A stretch of 64,000 nt of DNA, taken from an uncultured Chitinophaga sp. GTDB lineage: Bacteria; Bacteroidota; Bacteroidia; Chitinophagales; Chitinophagaceae. The notes beneath the pieces are model-generated. The model worked only from the letters and a program-made list of their open reading frames with translations, was not told where the DNA came from and did not search any database. A program made the position numbers and the translations under genes. The DNA lies in the NCBI GenBank assembly GCA_964596345.1, contig CAZQSZ010000001.1, forward strand, positions 752,696-816,695. The letters run 5' to 3'. Shown here in pieces: positions 10,948 through 25,917 of the stretch; position 1 is the first letter of the stretch, and each line of letters opens with the position of its first letter.

Positions 10948-11355
10948 ATGCTTTCAATGAAGTCACAATATGCCTTTAAGGCATTAAGTTATCTCACGGT
11001 AAAATTTAACGAGGGTCCCGTGCTGATCTCCGAGATCGCCAAAAAGAAGAAGATCCCGTTAAAGTTTCTCGAAAATATCCTGCTGGAATTAAAGAAAGCG
11101 GGTATACTGGATAGCAAGAAAGGCAAAGGAGGGGGATACTTTCTCCGGCAACGGCCCGATAAGGTAAAAGTAGCTACCGTGATCCGGCTGATCAATGGAC
11201 CTATTGCCATGCTGCCTTGCGTAAGTCTCTATTTCTATGAACGTTGCAAGAATTGCGACGAGAAGAAATGCGGCCTTCATGACATGATGGTGGAAGTTCG
11301 GGACGCCACCCTGCAGATTGTTGAGAACAGGACGCTGCAAGACCTTGTCATGTGA
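10948..11355 (+). CDS. Rrf2-family transcriptional regulator with a four-Cys C-terminal cluster
   Basis: MLSMKSQYAFKALSYL... winged-helix N-terminus typical of Rrf2. The C-terminal region carries C-x8-C-x2-C-x4-C (PCVSLYFYERCKNCDEKKCGLH). Confidence 0.85.
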   Translation: MLSMKSQYAFKALSYLTVKFNEGPVLISEIAKKKKIPLKFLENILLELKKAGILDSKKGKGGGYFLRQRPDKVKVATVIRLINGPIAMLPCVSLYFYERCKNCDEKKCGLHDMMVEVRDATLQIVENRTLQDLVM

Positions 11356-11424
11356 TTATTCTGTTTTGTTTCTTACCAACAATAGTTAGCGGCATCGTTT
11401 GCACGATATATTCAGTCCACCGGG

Positions 11425-11455
11425 TTGGTGGGGTAATGAATTAAGCCTATTTTTG
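11425..11455 (+). promoter_or_regulatory. Candidate sigma-A promoter of the Prx-cys-siroheme block
   Basis: TTG (11425-11427), N20, TATTTTTG (11448-11455). It lies 21 nt upstream of the Prx ATG region. Confidence 0.35.
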
Positions 11456-11475: not shown

Positions 11476-12111
11476 ATGGCACTACGTCTCGGGGATGTTG
11501 CTCCCAACTTTAAAGCACAAACAACAGAAGGCGAAATAGATTTTTATGATTTCCTGGGAAACGGATGGGGAATATTATTTTCTCACCCCGCTGATTTCAC
11601 CCCGGTTTGTACAACTGAACTTGGGAAAACAGCCCTATTACAGGAGGAATTTGCCAAACGAAATGTAAAAGTGCTGGCAGTGAGTGTGGATCCGTTGGAT
11701 AAGCATATGGAGTGGAGAAAAGATATCAATGAAACACAACACTGCTCTGTTAGTTTTCCAATCATCGCTGATGAAGACAGGGTGGTTGCCCTGTTATATG
11801 ATATGATTCACCCGAATGCATCGGCAACTGCTACTGTGCGTTCTTTATTTGTGATCGGGCCCGATAAGCTAATTAAGCTGATGATCATTTATCCAGCTTC
11901 AACAGGTAGAAATTTTTACGAAGTATTAAGAGTGGTGGATTCATTACAGCTGACAGCGGGTTATAGCGTAGCTACACCGGCTGACTGGAAAGCAGGTGAG
12001 GATGTTATCGTTGTTCCGGCAGTGTCAACTGAAGATGCGATCAAGAAATTCCCTAAAGGGGTGAAGGTGGTTAAACCTTACCTGCGCTATACTCCACAAC
12101 CCAATCTTTGA
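11476..12111 (+). CDS. 1-Cys peroxiredoxin (Prx6-like)
   Basis: 211 aa. Contains FSHPADFTPVCTTELG, the peroxidatic-Cys motif, and the overall Prx6 length. Confidence 0.9.
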   Translation: MALRLGDVAPNFKAQTTEGEIDFYDFLGNGWGILFSHPADFTPVCTTELGKTALLQEEFAKRNVKVLAVSVDPLDKHMEWRKDINETQHCSVSFPIIADEDRVVALLYDMIHPNASATATVRSLFVIGPDKLIKLMIIYPASTGRNFYEVLRVVDSLQLTAGYSVATPADWKAGEDVIVVPAVSTEDAIKKFPKGVKVVKPYLRYTPQPNL

Positions 12112-12818
12112 TGCTGAGCAGCGAACAGATACAGGAAATAGAGAATAGCTCGTTGCCGGAAGCAATCCGTTTAATCACTGGTTTATTTCCCGGCGAAGTG
12201 GTCTTTTCTTCTTCTTTAGGACAGGAAGACCAGGTGCTCACGGATGTGATCTTCAAAAATGATCTGCCCGTTAAGATCTTCACGATCGATACGGGCAGGT
12301 TGTTTAATGAAACATATGAATTACTCGACCGTACCATTGCCCGGTATAAAAAACCAATACAGGTTTATTTCCCGGAAGCGGCTGATGTGGAAACGTTTGT
12401 AGCAGAAAAAGGGATCAACAGTTTTTATGAATCTGTGGACAACCGTAAGGAATGCTGCTATATCCGGAAAGTGATTCCATTGAACCGTGCATTGAAAGGA
12501 ACGAAGGTTTGGATTACCGGTTTAAGGGCTGAACAATCAAGCAACAGGCAACAGATGCCTATGATCGAATGGGCAGAAGATAAACAGTTATATAAGTTCA
12601 ACCCGCTGATGAACTGGAGCTATGATGAGATGATCAGTTATATCAATAAACATAATGTGCCCTATAACCGGTTGCATGATAAAGGATTTGTCAGCATCGG
12701 ATGTGCACCGTGTACAAGAGCCATTGAACCAGGTGAAGATGCAAGAGCCGGTCGCTGGTGGTGGGAAGCATCGCAGAAAGAATGCGGATTGCATGAAACA
12801 AAAGTGAAAGCGGGATAG
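12111..12818 (+). CDS. cysH: Adenylyl-sulfate (APS)-type assimilatory reductase, Fe-S-containing CysH
   Basis: ATG at 12111 overlaps the Prx stop (TGATG). Contains KECCYIRK plus IGCAPCTRA (the CC...CxxC cluster motif of APS reductases) and a C-terminal KECGLH. Confidence 0.85.
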   Translation: MLSSEQIQEIENSSLPEAIRLITGLFPGEVVFSSSLGQEDQVLTDVIFKNDLPVKIFTIDTGRLFNETYELLDRTIARYKKPIQVYFPEAADVETFVAEKGINSFYESVDNRKECCYIRKVIPLNRALKGTKVWITGLRAEQSSNRQQMPMIEWAEDKQLYKFNPLMNWSYDEMISYINKHNVPYNRLHDKGFVSIGCAPCTRAIEPGEDARAGRWWWEASQKECGLHETKVKAG

Positions 12819-12867
12819 TTTTTTTACCAGAATTGTTTGCAGTCAATGCAAACGTACAATAATAGTT

Positions 12868-13776
12868 ATGAGTAAATATCATTTGGATTACCTGGAGCAG
12901 CTCGAAGCAGAGAGTATTCACATTTTTCGTGAAGTGGCTGCTCAATTTGAAAGACCGGCACTCTTATTCAGTGGTGGGAAAGATTCTATTACGATGGTGC
13001 ACCTGGCCAAAAAAGCATTTGCGCCGGGAAAAATACCTTTTCCATTAGTGCATATTGATACCGGGCACAATTTCCCGGAAGCACTGGAATTCCGTGACTG
13101 GCTGGCCAACGAAGTCAATGCAACACTGGTTGTCAGGAAAGTGGAAGACACGATTAAACAAAAAAACCTGACGGAACCGAAAGGAAAATTTCCCAGCCGT
13201 AACTGGTTACAGACTTATACACTCTTAGATACGATCGAAGAATTCAAATTTGATGCTTGTATCGGTGGAGCCCGCAGGGATGAGGAAAAAGCAAGGGCAA
13301 AGGAAAGAATATTTTCTGTCCGGGATGAATTTGGGCAATGGAACCCCAAATTGCAACGACCAGAACTCTGGAATATTTACAATGGCAGAATTCATAAGGG
13401 GGAGAATGTGCGGGTATTCCCGATCAGCAACTGGACAGAACTGGACATCTGGAATTATATCCGCAAAGAAAATATTGATCTTCCGTCTATCTATTTTGCA
13501 CATGAGCGGCAGGTGATCGAACATGAAGGGCAGCTGGTGGCCATCAGTGAATTTGTGCAACCAGATGCAAGTGATGTGGTACTGACCAAACAAGTCCGGT
13601 ACAGAACGGTTGGTGATATGACCTGTACAGCTGCGGTTGAATCTGCTGCAGCTAACCTGGATGAAGTGATCAACGAGATCATAGCAACCAGGATCAGTGA
13701 GCGGGGAGAAACCAGGATCGATGATAAAGTAACGGAAGCAGCGATGGAAGATCGGAAGAAGAACGGGTATTTTTAA
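12868..13776 (+). CDS. cysD: Sulfate adenylyltransferase subunit 2
   Basis: 302 aa. Contains LLFSGGKDS (PP-loop) and is highly CysD-like throughout. Confidence 0.95.
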   Translation: MSKYHLDYLEQLEAESIHIFREVAAQFERPALLFSGGKDSITMVHLAKKAFAPGKIPFPLVHIDTGHNFPEALEFRDWLANEVNATLVVRKVEDTIKQKNLTEPKGKFPSRNWLQTYTLLDTIEEFKFDACIGGARRDEEKARAKERIFSVRDEFGQWNPKLQRPELWNIYNGRIHKGENVRVFPISNWTELDIWNYIRKENIDLPSIYFAHERQVIEHEGQLVAISEFVQPDASDVVLTKQVRYRTVGDMTCTAAVESAAANLDEVINEIIATRISERGETRIDDKVTEAAMEDRKKNGYF

Positions 13777-13837
13777 CTCCCAACTCCCTGAAGGGGGGCT
13801 TTGGGTAATATTCTTTGTAAATAAATTATCTAACTAT

Positions 13838-13904
13838 TTGGTCTTTCAGTGAGCGAAGGACCAATACAAATTAAGTTCCCTCCTGAGCTTGCCGAAGGAA
13901 GGGA
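13838..13904 (+). other. Two tandem related stem-loops in the cysD-cysN gap
   Basis: First: TTGGTCTTT-cagtgagcg-AAGGACCAA (13838-13864), 9 bp including one G-U pair. Second: TTCCCTCC-tgagcttgccgaa-GGAAGGGA (13876-13904), stem with a bulge. Both loops contain TGAGC and both hairpins contain CGAAGGA spanning the loop/3'-arm junction. Confidence 0.45.
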
Positions 13905-13913
13905 CAAAGTGAT

Positions 13914-15155
13914 ATGGATCTATTACGTTTTATAACTGCAGGTAGCGTCGATGACGGGAAAAGTACACTGATCGGGAGATTGTTGTACGATAGTAAGAAT
14001 ATTCTCATTGATCAGCTGGAAGCACTGGAAAAGTCAACGAAGAACAGGACCGATGGTTCTGTTGATCTTGCCTTGCTCACCGACGGGCTCAGGGCTGAAA
14101 GGGAACAGGGTATTACGATTGATGTGGCGTATCGTTACTTTACCACGCCGAAAAGAAAATTCATTATTGCCGATGCTCCCGGTCATGTGCAATACACCCG
14201 TAACATGATCACCGGTGCTTCTAATGCCAGCCTGATCATTGTTCTGGTAGATGCAAGACAAGGTGTGGTGGAACAGACAAGACGCCATTCTATTATCGCT
14301 TCTTTATTGAAGATACCGCATGTGGTGGTTGCTATCAATAAGATGGACCTGGTAGGGTACTCGCAGGATGTTTTCAATAATATCGTGATCGACTATGCTG
14401 AAGTGGCGAAGCAATTAGGATTAAAGAATGTGACCTATATCCCGATCAGTGCTTTGAATGGTGATAATATCGTGGACAGATCAGCGATCATCGACTGGTA
14501 TGATGGGAAGCCATTGCTGGAATTCCTGGAAGAAGTGGATACGGCACATGATATTGACCTGGATAATGCCCGTTTCCAGGTGCAGTTTGTAATCAGACCT
14601 CAGACGGAAGAATTACATGACTATCGTGGCTATGCCGGGAAGATTATCAGCGGTATTTATAAAAAAGGGGATAAGGTAAAAGTGTTGCCAGCTGGTTTGG
14701 AAACAACCATCAGTAAACTGGAAGTGGGTGGACAGGAAGTGGAAGAAGTATTTGCACCGCAGGCGGCCGTTATTCAACTGGCGGATGATATTGATATCAG
14801 CCGGGGCGATGCGATCATTAAAGCAGAAGATACACCTGTTGTCAGCAATGAACTCGAAGTTTTGCTCTGCTGGCTGGATGATAAACCTTTACAGGCGGGC
14901 AACAAGTATTATTTGCAGCACAACAGCCGTTTGGTGAGGGCCGTGGTGAAAAATATTGAATACAAACTGGATGTAAACACCCTTCAGCAACAGCCGGTGG
15001 AAGGAGGGGTAAAACTGAATGAAGTGGTCAAGGCCACGATCAGGACAGCATCAGCACTAGTGTATGATCCGTATGATCAATTTGTTGTAAACGGAAGTGC
15101 TATTCTTGTGGATGAAACAAGCAACAGTACGGTAGCGGCGGTGCTGCTGCAGTAA
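13914..15155 (+). CDS. cysN: Sulfate adenylyltransferase subunit 1 (GTPase); no fused APS kinase domain
   Basis: 413 aa. Contains GSVDDGKST (G1), DAPGH and NKMD. Confidence 0.92.
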   Translation: MDLLRFITAGSVDDGKSTLIGRLLYDSKNILIDQLEALEKSTKNRTDGSVDLALLTDGLRAEREQGITIDVAYRYFTTPKRKFIIADAPGHVQYTRNMITGASNASLIIVLVDARQGVVEQTRRHSIIASLLKIPHVVVAINKMDLVGYSQDVFNNIVIDYAEVAKQLGLKNVTYIPISALNGDNIVDRSAIIDWYDGKPLLEFLEEVDTAHDIDLDNARFQVQFVIRPQTEELHDYRGYAGKIISGIYKKGDKVKVLPAGLETTISKLEVGGQEVEEVFAPQAAVIQLADDIDISRGDAIIKAEDTPVVSNELEVLLCWLDDKPLQAGNKYYLQHNSRLVRAVVKNIEYKLDVNTLQQQPVEGGVKLNEVVKATIRTASALVYDPYDQFVVNGSAILVDETSNSTVAAVLLQ

Positions 15156-15196
15156 ATTTTTTTATCTAATTAGTCTATTAAAAAAGTAGAATATTA

Positions 15197-15991
15197 ATGA
15201 ATAACAAGGGCAGCGTAATACTGGCAGGAGCAGGTCCCGGTGATGCAGAACTCATTACTATAAAATTGCAAAAGCGGTTAAGGGAAGCTGATGTGATCAT
15301 TACTGACCGGCTGGTGAACCCAATGATCATTGAAGCACATGCAAGCCCTGAGGCCATAGTTATTGTTGCAGGTAAGCAGGGTTATAATGATGCTTCTGTT
15401 TCGCAGGAAGATATCTGCAACCTGATTGTTGTTCATGCACTGGATGGAAAAAATGTATTACGACTTAAAGGTGGTGATGTGGCTTTTTTCAGTAATGTAC
15501 TGGATGAACTGAAAGTGTTGGAGGAAAACAATATTTCGTTTGAGATCATCCCGGGTATTACCGCTGCATCAGGCGCATCTGCTTATGCAGGTATCCCGTT
15601 AACTGCCCGTGGATATGCCCAGGCTGTACAATTTATCACTTTCAATCCAACTAATTTTTATAGTTCAGACAAATGGAAAAGCCTGGCAGGCACGAGTGAT
15701 ACACTGGTATTTTACATGGCCGCCAAGAATATAGCTGACCTCGCTGAATTATTGTTGCGTTATACCCGGAAGCCTTCCACCCCGATGGCAGTGATTGAGC
15801 AGGCAACTACACAACATCAGCAGGTTCATATAAGCACCTTAAAAGATTGTGCCAGTGATTTTGCCGGAAAACACTTCAGTTCCCCTTCCCTGGTTATTGT
15901 AGGAGAAGTGGTGGAGTTACACCAGTCATTTAACTGGTTTGCCGCAGGGGGAACCGGTTCTGTATTCAATGAATTGATAACTGCTAAATAG
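15197..15991 (+). CDS. cobA: Uroporphyrinogen-III C-methyltransferase (SUMT)
   Basis: 264 aa. Contains GAGPGDAELITIKL...ADVIITDRLV and IPGITAASGA motifs. Confidence 0.85.
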   Translation: MNNKGSVILAGAGPGDAELITIKLQKRLREADVIITDRLVNPMIIEAHASPEAIVIVAGKQGYNDASVSQEDICNLIVVHALDGKNVLRLKGGDVAFFSNVLDELKVLEENNISFEIIPGITAASGASAYAGIPLTARGYAQAVQFITFNPTNFYSSDKWKSLAGTSDTLVFYMAAKNIADLAELLLRYTRKPSTPMAVIEQATTQHQQVHISTLKDCASDFAGKHFSSPSLVIVGEVVELHQSFNWFAAGGTGSVFNELITAK

Positions 15992-15996
15992 TAGCT

Positions 15997-17694
15997 ATGA
16001 TCGGCGAAGGAAGATTAAAACAATTACGCCAGTTTCTGGAAAGCTACTCACAGGAGGAGCTGGTCTGGATCAATGGCTACCTGTCTGGTATCGTGGCTAA
16101 CCGGAATACGAATGGCCATGAAACAAAGCAGGCTGTAAAAAAAATAAACCTTTTATTCGGCACCGAAACCGGGAATTCAAAAAGATTGGCCACTCAATTA
16201 GCAGGAGTAGCCAAAAAGAAAGGCATTCATGTAAAATTGACTGATCTAAGTCAGTACCGCCTGGCTGATCTTTCAAAAGAAGAATATTTTTTTGTCGTGA
16301 TCAGTACACAGGGCGAAGGGGAACCTCCCATCCCGGCGAAGAAATTCTATGATCATTTACAGGAAACTACTTTATCGCTACCGGGTCTGAAGTATAGTGT
16401 ACTTGCACTGGGTGATTCATCTTATCCCCTGTTTTGCAAAACTGGGGAGGAGGTGGATGCAAAGCTTGAACAGTTTGGCGGGGCAAGAGTAGTTCCGTTG
16501 CAAAAATGTGATGTTGATTATGAAGAAGACGCTGCCAGCTGGTTTGATAAGGTGCTGGCCATAGTGGATCAACAGACAGCAGTAACCCCGGTGCCTGTTG
16601 CAGTGAAGCCAGTAGAGAAAAAGGCGACAGGGAAAAAATATTACCACGGGAAAATTCTAACGAATATCAACCTGAATGACAGGGGCTCTAATAAACAAAC
16701 GTACCATATCGAGATCGGAGCGGATGAGCCGATAGCTTATGAACCCGGTGATACAATTGGCATTGTACCTGCTAATAGAAAAGAAGTAGTGGATAGAATC
16801 ATTGCTTTAACTGGAATTGATCCTTCTTTGGAAATAAGTACAGCAAAAGCAACAGCAGCAGTAAGGGAATTGCTGACCTATAACCTCAATATCTGCTACC
16901 TGCTTACATCAACAGTTAAAAAATATGCGGCTATTACTGAGCAGGAAATTCCGGATATAAGAATGGACCTTGTTGATCTGCTGAGGATATACCCGCTAAA
17001 AAATACAGGCCAGTTTATAGAAGTACTCAAATCATTAATGCCCATAGCACCCCGGTTATATTCTGTATCATCTTCCCCTGCAGCACATGGAGAAAATGAA
17101 GTGCATATCACCGTGGCAAGAAACCAGTTCCTGGCGCAGGACGAACACCGCTTTGGTTTGTGCAGCGAATTCCTGGGCGATCAGCCAGTTGGGACGACAA
17201 TGAGTTTTTATGTGCACAAGGATAAGAATTTCAAACTCCCGGCTTCTGATAAAGATGTGATCATGATCGGACCCGGTACCGGTGTGGCACCTTTCCGGGC
17301 CTTCCTTGCACACCGGGATGCAACAGGTGCTGTTGGCAGAAACTGGTTCTTTTTTGGTGAACAGCATTTCCTGACTGATTTTTTATACCAGTCAGAAATG
17401 CAGCAATATGTGCAAACAGGAGTTTTAACAAATATTGACCTGGCGTTTTCAAGAGACCAGCCAGCGAAGATTTATGTACAGCACCGGATGCTGGCAAAAG
17501 CGGCAGAATTATATCAATGGATCAGTAGCGGAGCCTACCTCTTTATCAGCGGTACCAAAGACCCGATGAGTAAAGATGTGGAAGCTGCCCTGTTGCAGAT
17601 CATTGAAAAGGAAGGGAAAAAAACAAATGACGAAGCCCGGCAATACCTGGAGCAATTGGAAAAGGACGGAAGATATGAGAAGGATGTGTATTGA
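15997..17694 (+). CDS. cysJ: Assimilatory sulfite reductase (NADPH) flavoprotein alpha component
   Basis: 565 aa. Flavodoxin domain (LFGTETGNSKRLA) plus an FAD/NADPH domain (RLYSVSSS, GPGTGVAPFRAF, C-terminal YEKDVY). Confidence 0.85.
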   Translation: MIGEGRLKQLRQFLESYSQEELVWINGYLSGIVANRNTNGHETKQAVKKINLLFGTETGNSKRLATQLAGVAKKKGIHVKLTDLSQYRLADLSKEEYFFVVISTQGEGEPPIPAKKFYDHLQETTLSLPGLKYSVLALGDSSYPLFCKTGEEVDAKLEQFGGARVVPLQKCDVDYEEDAASWFDKVLAIVDQQTAVTPVPVAVKPVEKKATGKKYYHGKILTNINLNDRGSNKQTYHIEIGADEPIAYEPGDTIGIVPANRKEVVDRIIALTGIDPSLEISTAKATAAVRELLTYNLNICYLLTSTVKKYAAITEQEIPDIRMDLVDLLRIYPLKNTGQFIEVLKSLMPIAPRLYSVSSSPAAHGENEVHITVARNQFLAQDEHRFGLCSEFLGDQPVGTTMSFYVHKDKNFKLPASDKDVIMIGPGTGVAPFRAFLAHRDATGAVGRNWFFFGEQHFLTDFLYQSEMQQYVQTGVLTNIDLAFSRDQPAKIYVQHRMLAKAAELYQWISSGAYLFISGTKDPMSKDVEAALLQIIEKEGKKTNDEARQYLEQLEKDGRYEKDVY

Positions 17695-17723
17695 TGATGC
17701 GAAAACGCAATTGTACAACAGGT

Positions 17724-17760
17724 GAACAGAATTACAGGACGATGAAGAGTGCGACGCAAC
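17724..17760 (+). repeat. Copy A of a repeated intercistronic element
   Basis: GAACAGAattacaggACGATGAAGAGTGCGACGCAAC. The core 17739-17760 matches 53418-53439 at 21 of 22 positions. Confidence 0.7.
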
Positions 17761-17819
17761 AGGTGTTGAGCAGGATTATATAAGCTGGCAGCATGATCAT
17801 TTAAAGAGCAATTTACAGT

Positions 17820-19484
17820 ATGAGCGAAAAAAATAATTTATCAGCAGTTGAACGGATCAAGACATCCAGTGATGGTTTGCGGGGCACGTTGAAAGAAAGT
17901 CTGCAGGACGGGCTGACCGGTGCCTTGAAAGAAGATGATCAGTCGCTGATCAAATTTCACGGCCTGTACCAGCAGGATGACAGGGACAGGAGAGAAGAAC
18001 GTACGGAGAAAAAATTAGAATGGTTATATTCTTATATGATCCGGTTACGGCTTCCCGGAGGTTTTTTAACAGCAGAGCAGTGGATCGGTTTACATCATAT
18101 AGCTGGTGAGCATTCAACTGGCACCATCAAGATCACCACACGCCAAACTGTACAACTGCATGGAATAGTAAAATCACATATTAAACCAACGATACAGTCT
18201 TTCAATACCCTTCATCTTGATTCTATTGCTGCCTGCGGTGATGTGAACAGGAATGTAACCTGCAGTGCTCACCCCAGAGAATCAGCGATACATGAACAGG
18301 TGTTTCAATATGCAGATAAGATCAGTGTGATGGCTTTACCCAAAACAAGATCTTATTATGAAATATGGCTGGATGAAGAACAGATAGCAGATAAGAAAGA
18401 AGATGATCCTTTATACCAGGACCGCTACCTGCCCAGGAAATTCAAAGTAGGTATTGCCATTCCGCCGAATAATGATGTGGATGTACTGACCAATGATGTC
18501 GGCTTGATTGCTATCATTGAAAATAATGAACTGAAAGGATTCAATATTGCAGCCGGTGGCGGTTTAAGTTCCACGCATGGCAACCCCGCAACTTATGCAA
18601 GACTGGCAACGGTGTTGGGATTTGTGGATACAGAAGAAAAAGTATTGAAAGCAGTATATGAGATCATGACCATTCAACGGGATCATGGTAACAGGAGTGA
18701 CCGGAAACTGGCCCGGCTGAAATATACGATCGATAAGCTGGGTGTTGATCCGTTTAAGGAAGAATTAGAGAAACGATGCGGATTTAAACTTGAGCCGGTA
18801 AAACCCTACACGTTTACTACAAGAAAAGATCATTATGGCTGGAAGCAGAATCATGAAGGCAACTGGTATTATACCGTGTTTGTGGAAAATGGAAGGATAC
18901 TGGATGATGAAAAACTGCCACTGAAAACAGCCTTACTGGAAATAGCCAAAACAGGTAAGCTGAATTTCCGGTTTACAGGCAATCAGAATGTAATACTTGC
19001 AGATGTAAAAGAGGCAGACAAAAATGAGATTGATGCATTATTGCAGCAGTTTAATATCAGTGATCATACTGCTGCTGCGGGGGCACTGCGCAAAAATGCA
19101 ATGGCTTGTGTGGCATTCAATACCTGCCCGTTGGCATTGGCAGAGGCACAGCGTTACCTGCCTTCCCTGGTTGATAAGATCGAACCTTTACTGAAGAAGC
19201 ATTCAATTGAGCAAGAAGAGATCATATTACGAATGACCGGTTGCCCCAATGGGTGCGGCCGTTCCCCGGCTGCAGAAATTGGTTTTGTTGGAACCGCCTA
19301 TGGACAATACAACCTGCATATTGGAGGAGACAGGATCGGTGAAAGATTGAATAGAAAATATAAGGACAGCCTGGATGAGCCGCAAATACTGGAAGAGCTG
19401 GATCAATTGTTTGCTGTGTATAGTGCGAAAAGAAACGCCGGGGAAACCTTTGGTGATTTTGTCATCCGTGAAAAAATAGTGTGA
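17820..19484 (+). CDS. cysI: Assimilatory sulfite reductase hemoprotein beta component (siroheme/[4Fe-4S])
   Basis: 554 aa. Cluster/siroheme Cys motifs [11 protein letters not shown] and [11 protein letters not shown]. Confidence 0.92.
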
Positions 19485-20749
19485 TGTTTTTGTACGACAA
19501 TTATTTTAGACAACGCCTGCAGGAACTAAAGGATAACGGCTCCTACCGCTATTTTTTAGAAGTGAACAAGAGTGCCCAGCACTTTCCGCATTTCTATTAC
19601 CAGGATGCCAGTGGGATGCAACGTTCAGCGGTGAACTGGTGCAGTAATGATTATCTCTGTATGAGTACAAGGGAAGAGGTAATCGCCAAACTTGGATTTG
19701 TTACACACCGCAGTGGCACCGCCAGCAGTGGTACCCGAAATATTTCAGGTACGACAGTGCATCATAAAGAACTGGAAACAACTTTGGCGGCCTGGCATAA
19801 AAAAGAAGCCGCCTTATTATTCAACGGAGCTTATGCGGCAAATGTAACAACACTGCAAACATTGGGCAGGCATATTCCCGGGCTGATCTTTATTTCAGAT
19901 GAGCGGAACCATGCTTCCCTGATCGAAGGGATGAGAGGAGCAGGTAATGAGAAAAGAATTTTCCGTCACAATGATATGAAAGAGCTGGAAAGAATTTTGA
20001 ATGCCATTCCGCTGCAAACGCCCAAGTTGCTGGTATTTGAATCGGTGTATTCCATTTCAGGAACCATCGCCCCGGTAAAAGAGATCATCGCATTGGCAAG
20101 AAAGTATAACGCCATGACTTATGTTGATGAAGTCCATGCCGTCGGGCTTTATGGAGAAACAGGGGCCGGTATTTTTGAACAGGAAAAACTGCAGGATGAA
20201 ATTGATATCCTGAACGGGACCCTCTCGAAGGCAATTGGTGTGTTTGGCGGATATATTGCAGCTTCAGCTGTGATCATTGATTTTATCCGTAGTTATGGAA
20301 GTGGGTTTATTTTCACCACTTCATTGCCCCCTGCTGTTTGCAGTGCTGCTACTAAAAGTATACAGTTGATTCAACAGCATCCGGAATGGAGACAGGAGTT
20401 CAGGGCTAATGTTCAGTTGCTTCGAAAAGCCCTGCAGGAAAACCAGGTTGAGTTCCGTACTAACGATTCACATATCACCAGTGTACCAATCAGGGATGCG
20501 GTCCGGTGCAGGCAACTGGCCAATGAACTGCTGCAAAAACAGGGAGTGTACCTGCAGCCGATCAATTATCCAACTGTACCCAAAGGCGAAGAATGCCTCC
20601 GCATTATTGTAACGGCAAGGCACCTGGTAAAGCATATTAATCATTTGGCATTTAGTTTATCTAAAATAATTCATGGAGACGATCAGGCTCATAGGACGGG
20701 ATTCGCGGCTTTCGCTGCTGCAACTGGAGATAGTGAAGCAGCGTATTGA
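19484..20749 (+). CDS. hemA: 5-aminolevulinate synthase homologue (C4/Shemin-type, alpha-oxoamine synthase family)
   Basis: ATG at 19484 overlaps the cysI stop (TGATG). Motifs closely track alphaproteobacterial ALAS as I recall it: [62 protein letters not shown] (PLP lysine), [14 protein letters not shown] and [19 protein letters not shown]. Confidence 0.8.
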
Positions 20750-22196
20750 AACAGCAGCGAGCGGAATCAAAGTGGAGATCATTGCCCGCAGCAGCCGGGG
20801 CGATGAGCTGCAGGATGTGCCTTTGCAAACCGTGGAAGGAAGCGATTTTTTTACACAGGATATTTTTGATGCCCTGGAGAATGGAACTGCCGATATTGCT
20901 GTTCATTCATTAAAAGATATGAGCAACGAACATTTTTTTGGAACCAATAAGTTTGCCGTGGTGGACAGGGATGATACCAGGGACGTGGCCATCTTCCAAA
21001 AAGATATTCAACGAAAAATCACAGAAGGAAAACAGATCGTTATCGGAACCTGTTCCCCCAGGCGGGAAGAAATGGCAATTGGTTTTTTGCAAAAGGCTTT
21101 ACCGCAGTTGCATACCAATTTCCGGGTGGTTACAAAAACGATCCGGGGAAATGTGGATACAAGATTACGAAAACTGGAGAGTGGTGAGTATGATGGTATC
21201 ATCCTCGCAACAGCCGGGCTAAACAGATTATTGAGAAGCTGTGAAGATGCGGGAGTAAAGGAGTTATTGAAAGATAAAAAGCTGATGTTGTTACCGCTGG
21301 TAGAATGTGTGCCTGCTCCCTGCCAGGGAGCTATTGTGGCAGAAGCAGTTCCCGGAAACAGCAGGGCTATAGAATTGCTCAATATCATCAACAATAGCAG
21401 CTTGATGATTGATTGTACGAGGGAGAAGAAAGAAGCCTTGCAATATGGCGTGGGTTGTTTGCAAAAATTTGGAGTTACTACATTTAATCATGATGGTAAG
21501 AAGAGTTTGTATGCAGCGGGTAAGAATAGCAAAGGACAGTCATTTAGCAAATGGGAAGGATTACCGGAGTTGGATATTGCTACTAAGAAATTTTTCAGCA
21601 GTACAGATTATATGGGTGAATTTTTTGGTTACGACTATCATGCCGAGACAATTCAAATCAATGAACCGGTAGTTTACGTTGCCAATTATAAAGCAGTACA
21701 TCATAATAGTCTTACCGGCCAGTTAAGTGAAAAGAAAGTCTGGGCGGCCGGCACCAAAACCTGGTATGAACTGGCTAAGAAAGGAGTCTGGGTAGAGGGA
21801 TCTGCAGATGCTTTCGGGCTGGAAACATTGATCCCGGTTTGGCAAATGCCACTGATCGGGATTGAGAAAGAGGAAGTAGCTGTGATTACAAATGACCAGT
21901 CAAAGACGAACTGGCAACAAAAGAACTGGAAGGTTTACAGCACTTATTCTTTACTGGAAGAACAATCGGTGGTAATAAGTGAGCAGATCAAAGAAGCGGA
22001 TGTTATCTTCTGGACAAGTTTCCGGCAGTACCAGCAGTATAAAGAACTGCTAAAAAATAATGTGCAGCATGTTTGCCCTTTTGGGGAAACAGCAGAACAA
22101 TTCAAAGCAGCAGGTTTGAAACCTGTAGTATTTCCAAACATAAAAGCATTTCAGCAATGGAGACAAACTTCTGGCCAGTTACCCAGCGTCGCCTGA
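20673..22196 (+). CDS. hemC: Hydroxymethylbilane synthase with a ~210-aa C-terminal uroporphyrinogen-III-synthase-like extension
   Basis: Residues ~1-295 carry HemC motifs: [52 protein letters not shown] and cofactor Cys VGCLQKF. The tail resembles HemD segments ([43 protein letters not shown]). Confidence 0.8.
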
Positions 22197-23152
22197 GAGC
22201 AGGTACACATATAAGAGAGCTGATAGCCTCGGTAAAACTCAATCACAAGAGTTTTATCCAGCCGGTATTTGTGGAGGAAGGGATCAGCTCTCCAAGAACA
22301 GTGAAGGGGTTAAATGAGGTGCAGGTAGAAATGGCGGATTCAATAGTATATAGTATGGAACAGGATATCAGGAACGGGATTTCAAAATTCCTGTTATTTC
22401 CTGTACCAGCAACGAAAAAGGATAAGGAGTTTGATTTCTCATTTGCTGCTAATGTGATAAGGCGGGTAAAGGAAAATTTCGGTGAAGATGCATGGCTGGC
22501 TGCAGATGTTTGCTTATGCAGTTATACTACGCATGGGCATTGTGGTATTCTAAACCAGGATCACACACAGCTCTTAAACAGCAAAACAGTGGAACTGTTG
22601 AGCCACTATGCTTCTTTATTGGCTAATGCCGGGGTGGATTGTATTGCGCCGAGTGATATGATGGATGGCCGTATAGGGGCGATCAGAAGCAAACTGGATG
22701 CGCTGGGGTATGAACAGGTAAGCATCATGAGCTATGCAGCAAAGTTTAGTTCGCAGTTTTACGGGCCTTTCAGGGATGCCTGTCATTCTGTTCCCAATTC
22801 AACTGGATTGAAAAACAGGAAGACATACCAGTTATCCCCCTTTACTATCAACGATGCACTGGCATCTGCCATGCGGGATGAAAAAGAAGGAGCTGATATA
22901 TTGATGGTAAAACCAGCAGCACTTTATACAGATATAATCGCAAAACTGAAGCAACAAACCTTAAAGCCGGTGGCAGCATACCATGTGAGCGGGGAGTATG
23001 CAGCTATTGAAGCGTTGGCGGAGAAAGGTTTGCTGGACAGGGAAGCAGCACATGTGGAGGTGTGGGCGGCGCTGCAACGCAGCGGGGCAGATATTATTAT
23101 TTCCTATGCGGCAAGAAATGCAAAAGAGTGGATCAACCAGGCAATCATTTAA
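22157..23152 (+). CDS. hemB: Porphobilinogen synthase (ALA dehydratase), Zn-type
   Basis: ORF 22073..23152 (TTG start) trimmed to the ATG at 22157, where homology begins ([14 protein letters not shown]...IQPVFVEEG). Contains the Cys-rich metal site DVCLCSYTTHGHCG, PSDMMDGRIG and the active-site MVKPA. Confidence 0.9.
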   Translation: METNFWPVTQRRLRAGTHIRELIASVKLNHKSFIQPVFVEEGISSPRTVKGLNEVQVEMADSIVYSMEQDIRNGISKFLLFPVPATKKDKEFDFSFAANVIRRVKENFGEDAWLAADVCLCSYTTHGHCGILNQDHTQLLNSKTVELLSHYASLLANAGVDCIAPSDMMDGRIGAIRSKLDALGYEQVSIMSYAAKFSSQFYGPFRDACHSVPNSTGLKNRKTYQLSPFTINDALASAMRDEKEGADILMVKPAALYTDIIAKLKQQTLKPVAAYHVSGEYAAIEALAEKGLLDREAAHVEVWAALQRSGADIIISYAARNAKEWINQAII

Positions 23153-23167
23153 AAGTTAACAGGACCG

Positions 23168-24688
23168 ATGGATAGTCATATAGATAAAACAGCCCCGGAA
23201 ACAAGTAACGGTGATGGTACAAAGAACCAGTTGTATCCTGTTTTCCTGAAACTGGAGCAGTTAAATATTTTACTGGTGGGAGCCGGTAATGTAGGGTTGG
23301 AGAAATTACATTCACTTTTGTCGAATTCTCCCCAGGCAAAGATCACGGTAGTGGCACCAGGGGTTAAAAAAGAAGTAAGGGAATTGGTACAAAAGCATCC
23401 TTCTTGCACAATTATTGAAAGGCAATTCCAGGAGGAAGATCTTGAGAATAAAGAGCTGGTTATTTTAGCAACTGATAATAAAGAATTACACCAGGATATC
23501 ACCCAACTCGCCAATGCCAACAAGATACTGATCAATGTGGCAGATACACCCGAACTCTGTGATTTCTATTTGGGCAGTATTGTGCAGAAGGGATTATTGA
23601 AGATCGCTATCTCCACCAATGGGAAATCGCCAACAGCAGCCAAACGTATCAGGGAAGTTTTGAATGAATCTTTGCCTTCAGAACTGGATGAGCTGATCAG
23701 TAACCTGAATAAGGTGCGGGGTAAGCTGAACGGTAATTTTGACTATAAAGTAAAAAAGCTGAATGCACTTACCAAAATCCTGGTAGATAAGGACAGCACC
23801 GTGGGTGAAAGAAGATGGCGAAAGATCGCTACCTGGTCCTTGGTCATTTTTGCCTCTATGCTTGTCGGGCATTTCATTTTATCTTATTTGCCTTTCCGGC
23901 AAATAGCAGATGATACGGTGGCGTGGTACGGTACATTGGATAAAAATTTTCACTGGATGGTGCTGGCTGGTTTTCTTGCACAAATGGTGGATGGAGCCAC
24001 CAGTATGGGATACGGAGTTACGAGTTCGGTTGTTTTACAAACGGCACAGGTAAGCCCTGCTGCCATTAGTGCCGGTATTCATACGGCAGAGATGTTTACT
24101 ACAGCTGCGTCGGGGTATAGTCACTATAAATTCAAGAATGTAAATAAAAAATTATTTAAGGCGCTGGTGATTCCAGGTGTTATTGGCGCTGTATTGGGAG
24201 CTTTATTATTAGTTTGGTTTGATGACACACATATTAAGTATCTGCGTCCCGCTATGGCTATTTATACATTGATGCTCGGCTTAAAGATATTCAGTAATGC
24301 GTTTCGTACTACCGGAAAGAGTAAATTCAAACGCTATGGCTGGCTGGCGGGTGCAGGTGGTTTCCTGGATTCATTCGGGGGAGGAGGCTGGGGACCCATT
24401 GTTACCTCCACACTGATAACAAAAGGAAGGACACCCAGGTATGTTATTGGTTCTGTAAGCCTGACCGAATTCTTTGTTACGCTGGCCAGTGCTTTTACAT
24501 TTTTTACGCTTATAGGTGTGCAAGGCTGGCAAATAATACTGGCATTGGTACTGGGAGGAGTTATAGCCGCACCTATTGCAGCGAAGCTGGCAGGTAAATT
24601 GCCTAAGAAAACCTCTTTCGTTTTATTAGGAGTTATTGTCGTTGCCTGGAGCACCAGGATATTAATTAATACCTTTATATCCCTATAG
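23168..24688 (+). CDS. Fusion of a precorrin-2 dehydrogenase/sirohydrochlorin ferrochelatase (SirC/Met8/CysG-N-like) domain to a TauE/SafE (TSUP) family membrane permease
   Basis: One uninterrupted 506-aa ORF. Residues ~25-215 contain YPVFLKLEQLNILLVGAGNVG and NVADTPELCDFYLGSIVQKGLLKIAISTNGKSPTAAKRIRE. Residues ~225-506 are multi-TM with Gly-rich TSUP-like motifs (MVDGATSMGYG, GGFLDSFGGGGWGPI). Confidence 0.7.
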   Translation: MDSHIDKTAPETSNGDGTKNQLYPVFLKLEQLNILLVGAGNVGLEKLHSLLSNSPQAKITVVAPGVKKEVRELVQKHPSCTIIERQFQEEDLENKELVILATDNKELHQDITQLANANKILINVADTPELCDFYLGSIVQKGLLKIAISTNGKSPTAAKRIREVLNESLPSELDELISNLNKVRGKLNGNFDYKVKKLNALTKILVDKDSTVGERRWRKIATWSLVIFASMLVGHFILSYLPFRQIADDTVAWYGTLDKNFHWMVLAGFLAQMVDGATSMGYGVTSSVVLQTAQVSPAAISAGIHTAEMFTTAASGYSHYKFKNVNKKLFKALVIPGVIGAVLGALLLVWFDDTHIKYLRPAMAIYTLMLGLKIFSNAFRTTGKSKFKRYGWLAGAGGFLDSFGGGGWGPIVTSTLITKGRTPRYVIGSVSLTEFFVTLASAFTFFTLIGVQGWQIILALVLGGVIAAPIAAKLAGKLPKKTSFVLLGVIVVAWSTRILINTFISL

Positions 24689-24741
24689 TATTGGGACGAT
24701 GAGTTTACCTTTGTCCTCTTTTTACAAGTAAGTCTAATTTT

Positions 24742-25917
24742 ATGGCGAAGCAACACCCGGAAACAAAGGCGATCCGTATTCAGACCAGGCAAACGGGCCA
24801 GAAAGAACATTCAACCCCGTTATTCCTGACCAGCAGTTTTACCTATGAATCAGCAGAGGATATGGCTGCCGCTTTTGCCGATGACTCACTGGAAGTGAAT
24901 ATTTATTCCCGTTTTTCCAACCCAACCGTTGATGAATTTATTATCAAGATCGCTACTCTCGAAGGGGCAGAAGATGGTATTGCCACCGGAACAGGGATGG
25001 CCGCAGTGTTTTCCACTTTCATGACTTTTTTATCCAAAGGAGATCATATCATTTCTGCTTCTGCGGTGTTTGGCTCCACTCATACCATCCTTACTAAATA
25101 TTTACCGAAATGGGGCATTGAGAGTTCTTATTTTGATATGAGCAAACCGGAAACTATTGCAGCATTGATCAAACCAACTACCAAAATGCTGTATATCGAA
25201 ACACCGAGTAATCCCGGATTGGATATTATTGACATTGAGTATGTTTCGGTGCTTTGCAAACAGCATAATATTTTGCTGGTAGTGGATAATTGTTTTGCTA
25301 CCCCGGCGGTACAGCAACCCATAAAATTTGGCGCTGATCTCGTACTACATTCTGCTACCAAATTTATTGACGGGCAGGGCAGGGTATTAGGTGGAGTGGT
25401 GGTAGGCCGGAAAGAACTGATCAACCCGATGTATTTATTTGTACGGAATACCGGCCCTTCATTGAGCCCGTTCAATGCCTGGGTGCTTAGTAAAAGCCTG
25501 GAGACATTATTCATCCGCATGGATAAGCATGCAACAAATGCGATGCAACTGGCTGTGGCTTTACAAAATCATCCGAAGATCGGTTCGGTAAAATATCCTT
25601 TCCTGGAATCACATCCGCAATATGCCATTGCAAAAAAGCAAATGAGTAATGGCGGTGGTATCGTCACTTTTGAATTAAAAGGGGGTATTGAAAGTGGCCG
25701 GAAGTTCCTGAATGCACTACAAATGCTTTCCATGACCAATAATTTGGGCGACAGTCGCAGCATCGCTTCGCATCCTGCTTCTACCACCCATTCCAAACTG
25801 ACAGAGGAAGAAAGGCAGTCTGTCGGGATAACGCCGGGATTAATCAGGCTTTCTGTTGGCCTGGAACATCCGGATGACGTGTTGCAGGATATTTTACAGG
25901 CGCTGAATAAGTGCTGA
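24742..25917 (+). CDS. metZ: O-succinyl/O-acetyl-homoserine sulfhydrylase (Cys/Met-metabolism PLP enzyme)
   Basis: 391 aa. Contains LFLTSSF, YSRFSNPTV, HSATKFIDGQGR (PLP lysine), LSPFNAW and NLGDSRS...HPASTTH, closely MetZ-like. Confidence 0.8.
   Translation: MAKQHPETKAIRIQTRQTGQKEHSTPLFLTSSFTYESAEDMAAAFADDSLEVNIYSRFSNPTVDEFIIKIATLEGAEDGIATGTGMAAVFSTFMTFLSKGDHIISASAVFGSTHTILTKYLPKWGIESSYFDMSKPETIAALIKPTTKMLYIETPSNPGLDIIDIEYVSVLCKQHNILLVVDNCFATPAVQQPIKFGADLVLHSATKFIDGQGRVLGGVVVGRKELINPMYLFVRNTGPSLSPFNAWVLSKSLETLFIRMDKHATNAMQLAVALQNHPKIGSVKYPFLESHPQYAIAKKQMSNGGGIVTFELKGGIESGRKFLNALQMLSMTNNLGDSRSIASHPASTTHSKLTEEERQSVGITPGLIRLSVGLEHPDDVLQDILQALNKC

Follow-up and report, generated by a model that had tools for sequence, protein, structure and literature searches.

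Organization of the locus

The window – the whole stretch of DNA analysed here, 64 kb from an uncultured Chitinophaga sp. (Chitinophagaceae, Bacteroidota) – contains a sulfate-assimilation cluster in which the genes for conversion of sulfate to sulfide stand together with tetrapyrrole genes whose predicted product is siroheme, the cofactor of the sulfite reductase CysI. At the centre of this report is a run of three of the tetrapyrrole genes, encoding 5-aminolevulinate synthase (ALAS), a predicted fusion of HemC and HemD (HemCD), and HemB. Twelve open reading frames (ORFs), all on the plus strand, extend from 11476 to 25917. Protein families were assigned with Pfam and NCBIfam/TIGRFAM models; scores are in bits and, where two numbers are given, the second is the model cutoff. 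A first-pass annotation of the window had described twelve co-directional genes of these same families, and both its coordinates and its assignments hold. Positions without a prefix are those of the window, while L001 and similar labels denote related loci.

11476 to 12111, plus strand: 1-Cys peroxiredoxin (Prx), with AhpC-TSA and 1-cysPrx_C domains
12111 to 12818, plus strand: CysH of the adenosine 5′-phosphosulfate (APS) reductase type (TIGR02055, 251 against 235)
12868 to 13776, plus strand: CysD, sulfate adenylyltransferase small subunit (TIGR02039, 423 against 397)
13914 to 15155, plus strand: CysN, sulfate adenylyltransferase GTPase subunit, 413 amino acids (aa) (TIGR02034, 521 against 336)
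15197 to 15991, plus strand: CobA/SUMT, assigned to the step from uroporphyrinogen III to precorrin-2 (TIGR01469, 242 against 185)
15997 to 17694, plus strand: CysJ-like sulfite reductase flavoprotein, with Flavodoxin_1, FAD_binding_1 and NAD_binding_1 domains
17820 to 19484, plus strand: CysI, siroheme/[4Fe-4S] sulfite reductase hemoprotein (TIGR02041, 763.5 against 756.6)
19484 to 20749, plus strand: ALAS, the enzyme of the C4 (Shemin) route (TIGR01821, 484 against 339)
20673 to 22196, plus strand: predicted HemC-HemD fusion; HemC from aa 1 to about 290 (TIGR00212, 173 against 164), HemD at aa ~305-500 (nt ~21585-22196)
22157 to 23152, plus strand: HemB, porphobilinogen synthase (NF006762, 354 against 297), with a Zn-type Cys triad, DVCLCSYTTHGHCG
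23168 to 24688, plus strand: CysG-N/SirC-like precorrin-2 dehydrogenase fused to a TauE/TSUP permease (TIGR01470, 121 against 62; NAD_binding_7, Sirohm_synth_M and TauE domains)
24742 to 25917, plus strand: MetZ-like O-succinylhomoserine sulfhydrylase, a pyridoxal phosphate (PLP) enzyme and sulfide consumer (Cys_Met_Meta_PP, 433)

Both subunits of the NADPH-dependent assimilatory sulfite reductase CysJI, hemoprotein and flavoprotein, are encoded in the cluster; CysJ has the correct three-domain architecture and scores 538 bits with TIGR01931, under the equivalog cutoff of 668. CysN carries no APS-kinase (CysC) domain, the match to the bifunctional model spanning only positions 23-430 of 632. 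The MetZ-like gene (NF006003, 512.5 bits, slightly under the cutoff of 522) closes the array, and its downstream neighbour is convergent.

Junctions are as first described, with small corrections: the long overlaps measure 77 and 40 nt, and the shorter gaps 5-53 nt. The start codons of CysH (12111) and ALAS (19484) are each the ATG of a TGATG, which in the first case overlaps Prx and in the second has one base in common with the cysI stop codon. The HemCD ATG lies 77 nt within the ALAS frame. HemB probably starts at the ATG at 22157, which is residue 29 in the longest ORF and coincides with the point where the closest orthologue (P0121) begins; this gives the 40-nt overlap with HemCD. On the strength of both points a TTG start at 22073 was rejected. 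Overlaps of similar size are seen again in relatives, distant ones included. Beyond the gaps of 5-53 nt there are two longer ones, of 137 nt (CysD-CysN) and 125 nt (CysJ-CysI). These two gaps, at 13777-13913 and 17695-17819, and their counterparts in relatives (L007:9729-10000 and L013:5687-5952) hold short GC-rich inverted repeats (such as CCCTGAAGGGG, CCCTCCTGAGCTTGCCGAAGGAAGGG and CCCCTCCTCGGAGGGG) that look like small REP-like hairpin insertions. Scans for sigma-70-type promoters and for terminators did no better than on shuffled sequence, as is expected for Bacteroidota, and an Rfam scan of the window returned no riboswitch or other RNA.

A route from glycine to siroheme

The cluster holds exactly the gene set of the route from glycine to siroheme. 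This had been claimed in the first-pass annotation for the steps leading from glycine plus succinyl-CoA, and the family models, together with the HemD fold described below, agree. In the pathway that we propose, ALAS would form 5-aminolevulinate (ALA) from glycine and succinyl-CoA, HemB would convert ALA to porphobilinogen, and the HemC-HemD fusion would carry porphobilinogen to uroporphyrinogen III; CobA would then methylate uroporphyrinogen III to precorrin-2, which the CysG-N/SirC domain would oxidise and presumably load with iron to yield siroheme. The siroheme would serve CysI or an alternative sulfite reductase of the NirA family. With the HemC-HemD fusion in place the path is without a gap at the gene level, iron insertion excepted. 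The roles of the enzymes of the siroheme branch (SUMT, dehydrogenase and chelatase) have been reviewed (PMC7242693). In the window the 1-nt TGATG overlap and the overlaps of 77 and 40 nt would couple translation of ALAS, HemCD and HemB to that of cysI and of one another, so that these enzymes would be made together with the apoenzyme.

Identity of the tetrapyrrole enzymes

A critical issue is whether the first enzyme of the route is an ALAS. For this protein the BioF, KBL and SPT models all fall under their own cutoffs, BioF reaching 330 bits against 484 for the ALAS model. The five best matches in the PDB are all ALAS, at 307-365 bits; chains of KBL, SPT and BioF reach at most about 190. Bacterial and human ALAS structures score 344-365 and the yeast enzyme 307, and this pattern – similar scores against bacterial and human ALAS, a lower one against yeast – gives no obvious sign of recent transfer. 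In the alignment with the ALAS structure 7X98 the motifs agree: GTLSKA, with the PLP lysine, NHASLIEG, DEVHAVG, WCSNDYL, GTRNISGT and the N-terminal YRYF, whose roles we take to be those assigned in established ALAS structures. KBL, BioF and SPT were rejected as identities for the synthase, their models being under cutoff and the PDB margin in favour of ALAS being about 170 bits. As judged from sequence, this alpha-oxoamine synthase is a bona fide ALA synthase.

The enzyme belongs to the same family as the alpha-proteobacterial and mitochondrial synthases (HemA/HemT, ALAS1/2; PDB 2BWN, 7X98, 5QQQ), with a score above the equivalog cutoff and motifs that agree. It differs from them in being found in Bacteroidota and in having as its partner gene a sulfite reductase, not genes for heme or bacteriochlorophyll. 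According to reviews of 2020 and 2026 (including PMC7242693), ALAS among bacteria is confined to the alpha-proteobacteria; the predicted ALAS of the Chitinophagaceae contradicts this restriction.

The tail of HemCD, approximately 200 residues, is divergent. It scores only 20-21 bits with the Pfam model HEM4, against a cutoff of 27.5, while seven of nine orthologues match (best E 5e-6); a profile search of the tail against PDB sequences gave no match. Since the tail was not resolved by sequence, structure prediction was needed. An AlphaFold (AF2) model built from an alignment of 26 homologues reached a predicted local distance difference test score (pLDDT) of 90.9, and all 11 Foldseek matches in the PDB at E<=1e-3 were uroporphyrinogen-III synthases, with probability 1.00 and template modelling (TM) scores of up to 0.59. 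That the TM scores are modest is plausibly due to hinge flexibility between the domains of HemD. As modelled, the tail is a two-domain HemD fold and the protein a HemC-HemD fusion; the ‘HemD-like tail’ of the first-pass annotation is thus borne out by model and structural matches alike. In domain 3 of HemC a G-C-(L/I)-Q motif is kept in all orthologues, and its Cys is presumably the dipyrromethane cofactor cysteine. HemB has the lysine-containing motifs MVKPA and SYAAKF in addition to its Zn-type metal motif.

The last of the tetrapyrrole proteins combines a SirC-like domain (aa ~20-215) with a TauE permease (aa ~220-506). The PDB matches of the SirC-like domain include CysG (66 bits) and Bacillus megaterium SirC (60 bits), and a GAGNVG motif is present. 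In the CysG alignment VADTP stands opposite VVDAP and KSP opposite TSP; we take the D and S at these positions to correspond to Asp104 and Ser128. The domain is about equally similar to the bifunctional CysG and the monofunctional SirC, in a class (CysG/Met8p/SirC) whose chelatase determinants are not understood (PMC7242693).

In the window, as in most relatives, a single polypeptide contains both parts; at L006:12696-14256 and L016:13780-15340 they are two adjacent genes. That a soluble cofactor enzyme should be tethered to a membrane permease is odd. By Pfam, the cluster contains no sulfate transporter other than, putatively, the TauE permease. The CysZ protein of Corynebacterium glutamicum is a sulfate uptake protein of the TSUP/TauE family, and there too a TauE/DUF81 permease is encoded inside a sulfate-assimilation cluster. 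Unlike CysZ, the permease of the window is fused to a siroheme dehydrogenase domain, as it is in many lineages.

Conservation of the arrangement

The loci surveyed comprise 13 related genome loci and four assembly loci (17 in total), together with 80 metagenome loci recovered by a scan with the HemD tail: approximately 97 in all. ALAS has hundreds of close homologues, and those that carry names are labelled Chitinophagaceae, Ferruginibacter or Bacteroidota. In every one of the 17 genome and assembly loci ALAS, HemCD and HemB are followed by SirC(-TauE). The metagenome loci, three or four divergent variants excepted, have ALAS before HemCD and HemB plus SirC after it wherever the contig reaches. 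The first-pass annotation had proposed a neighbourhood search among other Bacteroidota; the arrangement recurs throughout both sets. No GluTR, HemL, HemE or HemN gene was found in the flank of any locus.

What lies upstream of ALAS is equally telling. A siroheme-dependent sulfite reductase – CysI or a divergently transcribed reductase of the NirA family (Sir) – is directly upstream in 44 of 52 informative loci. In the first set (the window and 15 loci) CysI and an opposite-strand Sir each account for eight; in the metagenome set the counts are Sir 18, CysI 11, a nitrate-assimilation cluster seven and a sigma-54 activator one. The NirA-family reductase, 703-717 aa in length and transcribed divergently from ALAS, is under all NCBIfam equivalog cutoffs; for this reason, and given its NirA-family membership, we rejected it as a CysI orthologue. 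Enzyme replacement, strand inversion and relocation have thus not broken the tie of the module to siroheme-dependent assimilation, and no other genomic evidence speaks as strongly for a functional link between the two.

Several features of the variant loci are worth recording. The NirA-family reductase replaces CysJI in about half of the loci (for example L004:7749-9860, L005:7633-9768, L016:7385-9538 and L019:7722-9863, all on the minus strand); it bears a C-terminal extension of ~150-200 aa with a weak HEPN match, and the reductase and ALAS promoters each have their own copy of the operator described below. In the seven nitrate-type loci (L027:779-7744, L032, L037, L039, L047, L050 and L055) the ALAS module adjoins nitrate-assimilation genes, not a sulfite reductase: a 1201-aa NasA-like molybdopterin enzyme fused to Pyr_redox_2, Rubredoxin_C and BFD domains, a nitrate-reductase-associated protein, a rubredoxin-domain protein, MobA and Rdx, to which some of the loci add MOSC. 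In these loci the operator is retained in the ALAS promoter, and no nitrite reductase gene was seen within their flanks. The divergent variants include L090:6508-7938, L077:1138-2547 and L097:1-2361. In L090 a HemCD-like protein (35% identical) comes straight after CysI, with no ALAS between them, and in L097 SirC-TauE immediately follows HemCD without HemB.

A shared putative operator and a candidate regulator

Intergenic regions of the window and related loci contain a 23-bp palindrome with the consensus TAGTCTACT-N5-AGTAGGG. The regulatory features of the window are as follows.

10948 to 11355, plus strand: Rrf2-family transcription regulator (Pfam Rrf2, 111 bits; TIGR00738), with a C-x8-C-x2-C-x4-C motif (PCVSLYFYERCKNCDEKKC)
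11413 to 11435, plus strand: operator-like palindrome CAGTCCACCGGGTTGGTGGGGTA, 41 nt before the Prx ATG; an exact match to GTCYACY-N5-RGTRG, 23 bits with the position weight matrix (PWM)
11448 to 11455, plus strand: putative Bacteroidota -7 box TATTTTTG (consensus TAnnTTTG), read from intergenic sequence
15171 to 15193, plus strand: second operator-like site TAGTCTATTAAAAAAGTAGAATA, ending 4 nt before the CobA ATG; a match with one mismatch, 21.9 bits with the PWM, kept in L001-L003

The sequence TAnnTTTG is the established -7 consensus of Bacteroidetes promoters. As the -7 box lies 12 nt downstream of the palindrome, the first site covers the expected -33 element; the second, at 4 nt from the CobA ATG, is too close for a simple promoter operator. 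The window has no operator sites besides these two, both of which lie within the cluster.

The distribution of the motif across loci departs sharply from that in shuffled sequence. Exact matches to GTCYACY-N5-RGTRG number 21, spread over 11 loci, and every one of them is intergenic; a PWM trained on 20 sequences gave 58 matches against 0-1 in shuffles. In the 688 kb of the 80 independent metagenome loci the same PWM found 93 sites that reach 16 bits or more, and no labelled gene contains one. Of these sites 46 lie upstream of ALAS and Sir, 18 upstream of a TonB-dependent receptor, eight of SirC-TauE and six of CysD; others stand before Prx, CobA and CysH. In relatives whose module forms a separate operon, the 23-bp palindrome of the cys operon overlaps the promoter of the module too. 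By this shared motif the ALAS module, even as a transcription unit of its own, is assigned to one predicted regulon with the sulfur genes, and co-regulation of the cys and ALAS operons is supported at the level of sequence.

The TonB-dependent receptor (CarboxypepD_reg, Plug and barrel domains) follows SirC-TauE at L004:16088-19072, L010:15389-17944 and L017:15312-18197, often with a DUF2490 gene next (L017:18270-19022); the same operator lies upstream of it, at times in two copies.

The Rrf2 gene is directly upstream of the cys operon not only in the window: the same position is seen in L001-L004, L016, L019 and L064. A conserved array – LptF/G, cation efflux, OsmC, Rrf2 – ends with this gene and has, in the window, no operator site of its own. 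The adjacent Rrf2 protein is probably the factor that binds the palindrome. Its PDB relatives are regulators of the IscR/CymR type, and its four-Cys motif hints at sensing of Fe-S or redox state. CymR of Firmicutes is the Rrf2 regulator of cysteine metabolism and IscR that of Fe-S assembly; as in their regulons, a small winged-helix Rrf2 protein is encoded beside a target operon, in the window a predicted one, whose ~23-bp palindromic operator overlaps the promoter. In contrast to these, the Rrf2 protein of the window scores far under both equivalog cutoffs; we also take it that its Cys spacing differs from that of IscR and is absent from CymR, and that the operator sequence differs from theirs.

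Origin of the module

An exhaustive search of 1.84 billion representatives (50% clusters) places the HemB of the window in an isolated clade: one representative is 73% identical and all others at most ~54%, while mainstream HemB representatives are ~58-64% identical to each other. The closest HemBs from outside the clade (52-54%) are encoded in operons of the form GluTR-HemCD-HemB-HemL-(histidine kinase-response regulator)-HemE-HemN/HemY, from a lineage of 37% GC. A profile of the nearest HemB representatives brought up solely mainstream HemBs, and the lineages named among the relatives were Bdellovibrionales and Bdellovibrio alone. The HemCD proteins of the low-GC heme operons are 31-33% identical to that of the window over the full length, the odd HemD tail included.

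In these operons (L022:5516-13439, L023:5489-13454 and L024:7418-16334) the order is a short GluTR (295-325 aa, GlutR_N only), HemC-HemD, HemB, HemL, a response regulator, HemE, and HemN and/or HemY. A histidine kinase stands beside the response regulator in some of them; a two-component system inside a heme operon is unusual.

The window and the low-GC operons share an ALA-forming enzyme followed by a HemC-HemD fusion and HemB, overlapping frames and a divergent HemD tail. They differ in that the latter begin with GluTR and go on to HemL and the heme branch, whereas the former has ALAS and continues into SirC-TauE. An order hemA-hemC-hemD-hemB has been reported for Chlorobium. Because the succession of ALA-forming enzyme, HemCD and HemB is not the order of the pathway, it marks a shared evolutionary unit; in the Chitinophagaceae version of that unit ALAS is the predicted replacement of GluTR/HemL, and SirC-TauE that of the heme branch.

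A further arrangement occurs at L020:7177-10975 (ENA ERZ27280226 k141_2364393; GC 37%), where a 940-aa ORF joins an ALAS-like domain, HemC and a HemD-like tail, and HemB comes directly after. The ALAS-like domain scores 280 bits with ALAS in the PDB against 200 with SPT/KBL. The neighbours are purE, folD, pgpA, ruvA and nuoA; no sulfur genes are among them.

As to the ancestral route, the Flavobacteriaceae – a family of the same class – are entered as C5=1, C4=0 in the table of a published survey of heme auxotrophy, the consulted part of which has no Chitinophagaceae rows. C5 is accordingly the probable ancestral route of Bacteroidota.

A dedicated trunk for siroheme?

What, then, is the module for? 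On balance we judge it probable that this conserved locus of the Chitinophagaceae encodes both the enzymes that take sulfate to sulfide and, under common regulation, the whole of the pathway to their cofactor. With comparable confidence we infer that the role for which the module has been selected is supply of siroheme, decoupled from the route that feeds heme. The first-pass annotation had read the cluster in similar terms, as a self-contained cofactor supply line expressed with the sulfite reductase that it serves. That reading is supported in part – by the gene set, the coupling to cysI, the linkage to siroheme-dependent reductases and SirC, and the shared operator motif. It also implied that the module would be separate from a housekeeping trunk.

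On this last issue we incline to the view that the module either is one of two trunks or belongs to a cell that imports heme; that it is the sole trunk of the cell we regard as less likely. As indirect evidence, the isolated lineage of HemB (with its closest outside relatives in heme operons of another, low-GC lineage), the linkage to SirC and siroheme enzymes, the cys-type operator in the core promoter and the C5 route of the Flavobacteriaceae lean toward a dedicated or added module. A more specific proposal, on which our judgement is evenly balanced, holds that there are two parallel early tetrapyrrole routes: an ordinary heme route (or heme import), and a private C4 trunk (ALAS, HemB and HemC-HemD) that would work solely for siroheme, would be switched on with sulfite or nitrite reduction by an Rrf2 repressor, and would so escape feedback by heme on C5.

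A number of observations weigh against these proposals. Ten of the 28 Sir-type metagenome loci have no high-scoring site upstream of ALAS, and both the pairing of regulator with operator and the signal sensed are inferred. No SirB/CbiX gene is present in the cluster; iron insertion would have to come from the CysG-N/Met8p-like domain, whose role as ferrochelatase is putative. The window contains a complex I operon: the organism respires, and it therefore needs heme from somewhere. No second hemB, hemC or hemD, and no GluTR or HemL, of Chitinophagaceae turned up in homologue searches, which did not reach the rest of the genomes. Finally, the ALAS-HemC-HemD fusion and HemB of L020 lie in a housekeeping-looking context devoid of sulfur genes, in another lineage, from which it follows that such a module can act as a general trunk.

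The last three of these points are also those on which the principal alternative draws, namely that C5 and the ancestral hemB, hemC and hemD have been lost, that ALAS-HemCD-HemB feeds heme and siroheme alike, and that its place in a sulfur locus is a matter of history (insertion by cobA/sirC). It is further favoured by the closest relatives of HemCD and HemB, which are genes of general heme operons. We nonetheless consider it unlikely, if still a serious contender: linkage to a siroheme enzyme and SirC has held in about 97 loci through several rearrangements, a heme-branch gene is never adjacent, and the module, as a separate operon, ends with SirC-TauE and has a cys-type operator in its core promoter, which would be odd control for an essential supply of heme. 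In the window itself, a Pfam scan of the other ORFs of at least 150 aa found no GluTR, HemL, URO-D, HemN/F, HemY/G or ferrochelatase, in agreement with the earlier statement that no heme-specific step occurs there.

It is very improbable that the synthase is something other than ALAS (KBL, BioF, SPT or a cyclising ALAS-like enzyme) and that the product of the cluster is not siroheme. Members of the alpha-oxoamine synthase family are hard to subclassify from similarity alone, and ALAS paralogues with other roles are known in Streptomyces; but the model scores, PDB margin and motifs set out above all speak for ALAS, as does the overlap and coupling of the gene with those for HemC-HemD and HemB, whose substrates are solely ALA-derived. 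We also set aside the idea that a heme locus and a cys locus lie side by side by accident or were fused during assembly: nothing was found in its favour, and it is contradicted by the recurrence of the same order in independent assemblies from many projects, on contigs of 0.6-2.2 Mb, and by start and stop codons that overlap at the junctions.

Relation to known siroheme operons, and implications

Co-encoding of siroheme synthesis with its clients is not in itself new. The cysH operon of Bacillus carries ylnD/E/F (sirA/B/C), and cysG of E. coli adjoins nirBDC. These operons resemble the cluster of the window in that the branch from uroporphyrinogen III is encoded together with siroheme-dependent assimilation; they differ in that they begin at uroporphyrinogen III and use the housekeeping C5 trunk, whereas the window includes ALAS, HemB, HemC and HemD coupled to cysI. 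Annotation pipelines already name these proteins 5-aminolevulinate synthase, and the gene call is thus not new either. The novelty, a variation on this theme, lies in a cys locus that holds the entire trunk from the C4 step on, with coupling to cysI and, by prediction, a common operator. The first-pass annotation knew of no description of the arrangement; our full-text literature search likewise found no paper on ALAS in Bacteroidota or on a trunk-plus-siroheme module in a cys locus.

The ALAS described here sits in a widespread and conserved locus of a major family of soil and wastewater. If the cell does run two early routes, it would be the first bacterial ALAS outside the alpha-proteobacteria with a defined primary-metabolic role, and the module would be the first case of the common tetrapyrrole trunk being duplicated for a single cofactor. 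A duplicated trunk would also illustrate how flux can be divided between heme and siroheme, which is an open question for the control of the branched tetrapyrrole pathway. The set ALAS-HemCD-HemB-CobA-SirC constitutes a compact cassette for engineering siroheme, or precursors of B12 and F430, from glycine and succinyl-CoA. The operator (TAGTCTACTAATTTAGTAGGG) and the Rrf2 gene, for their part, point to what may be a new regulon of Bacteroidota for sulfur or Fe-S. More generally, the locus offers a clean and testable case in which the genes of a cofactor pathway, from the first committed precursor onward, lie with that of the client enzyme and are predicted to be coupled to it in translation and regulation.

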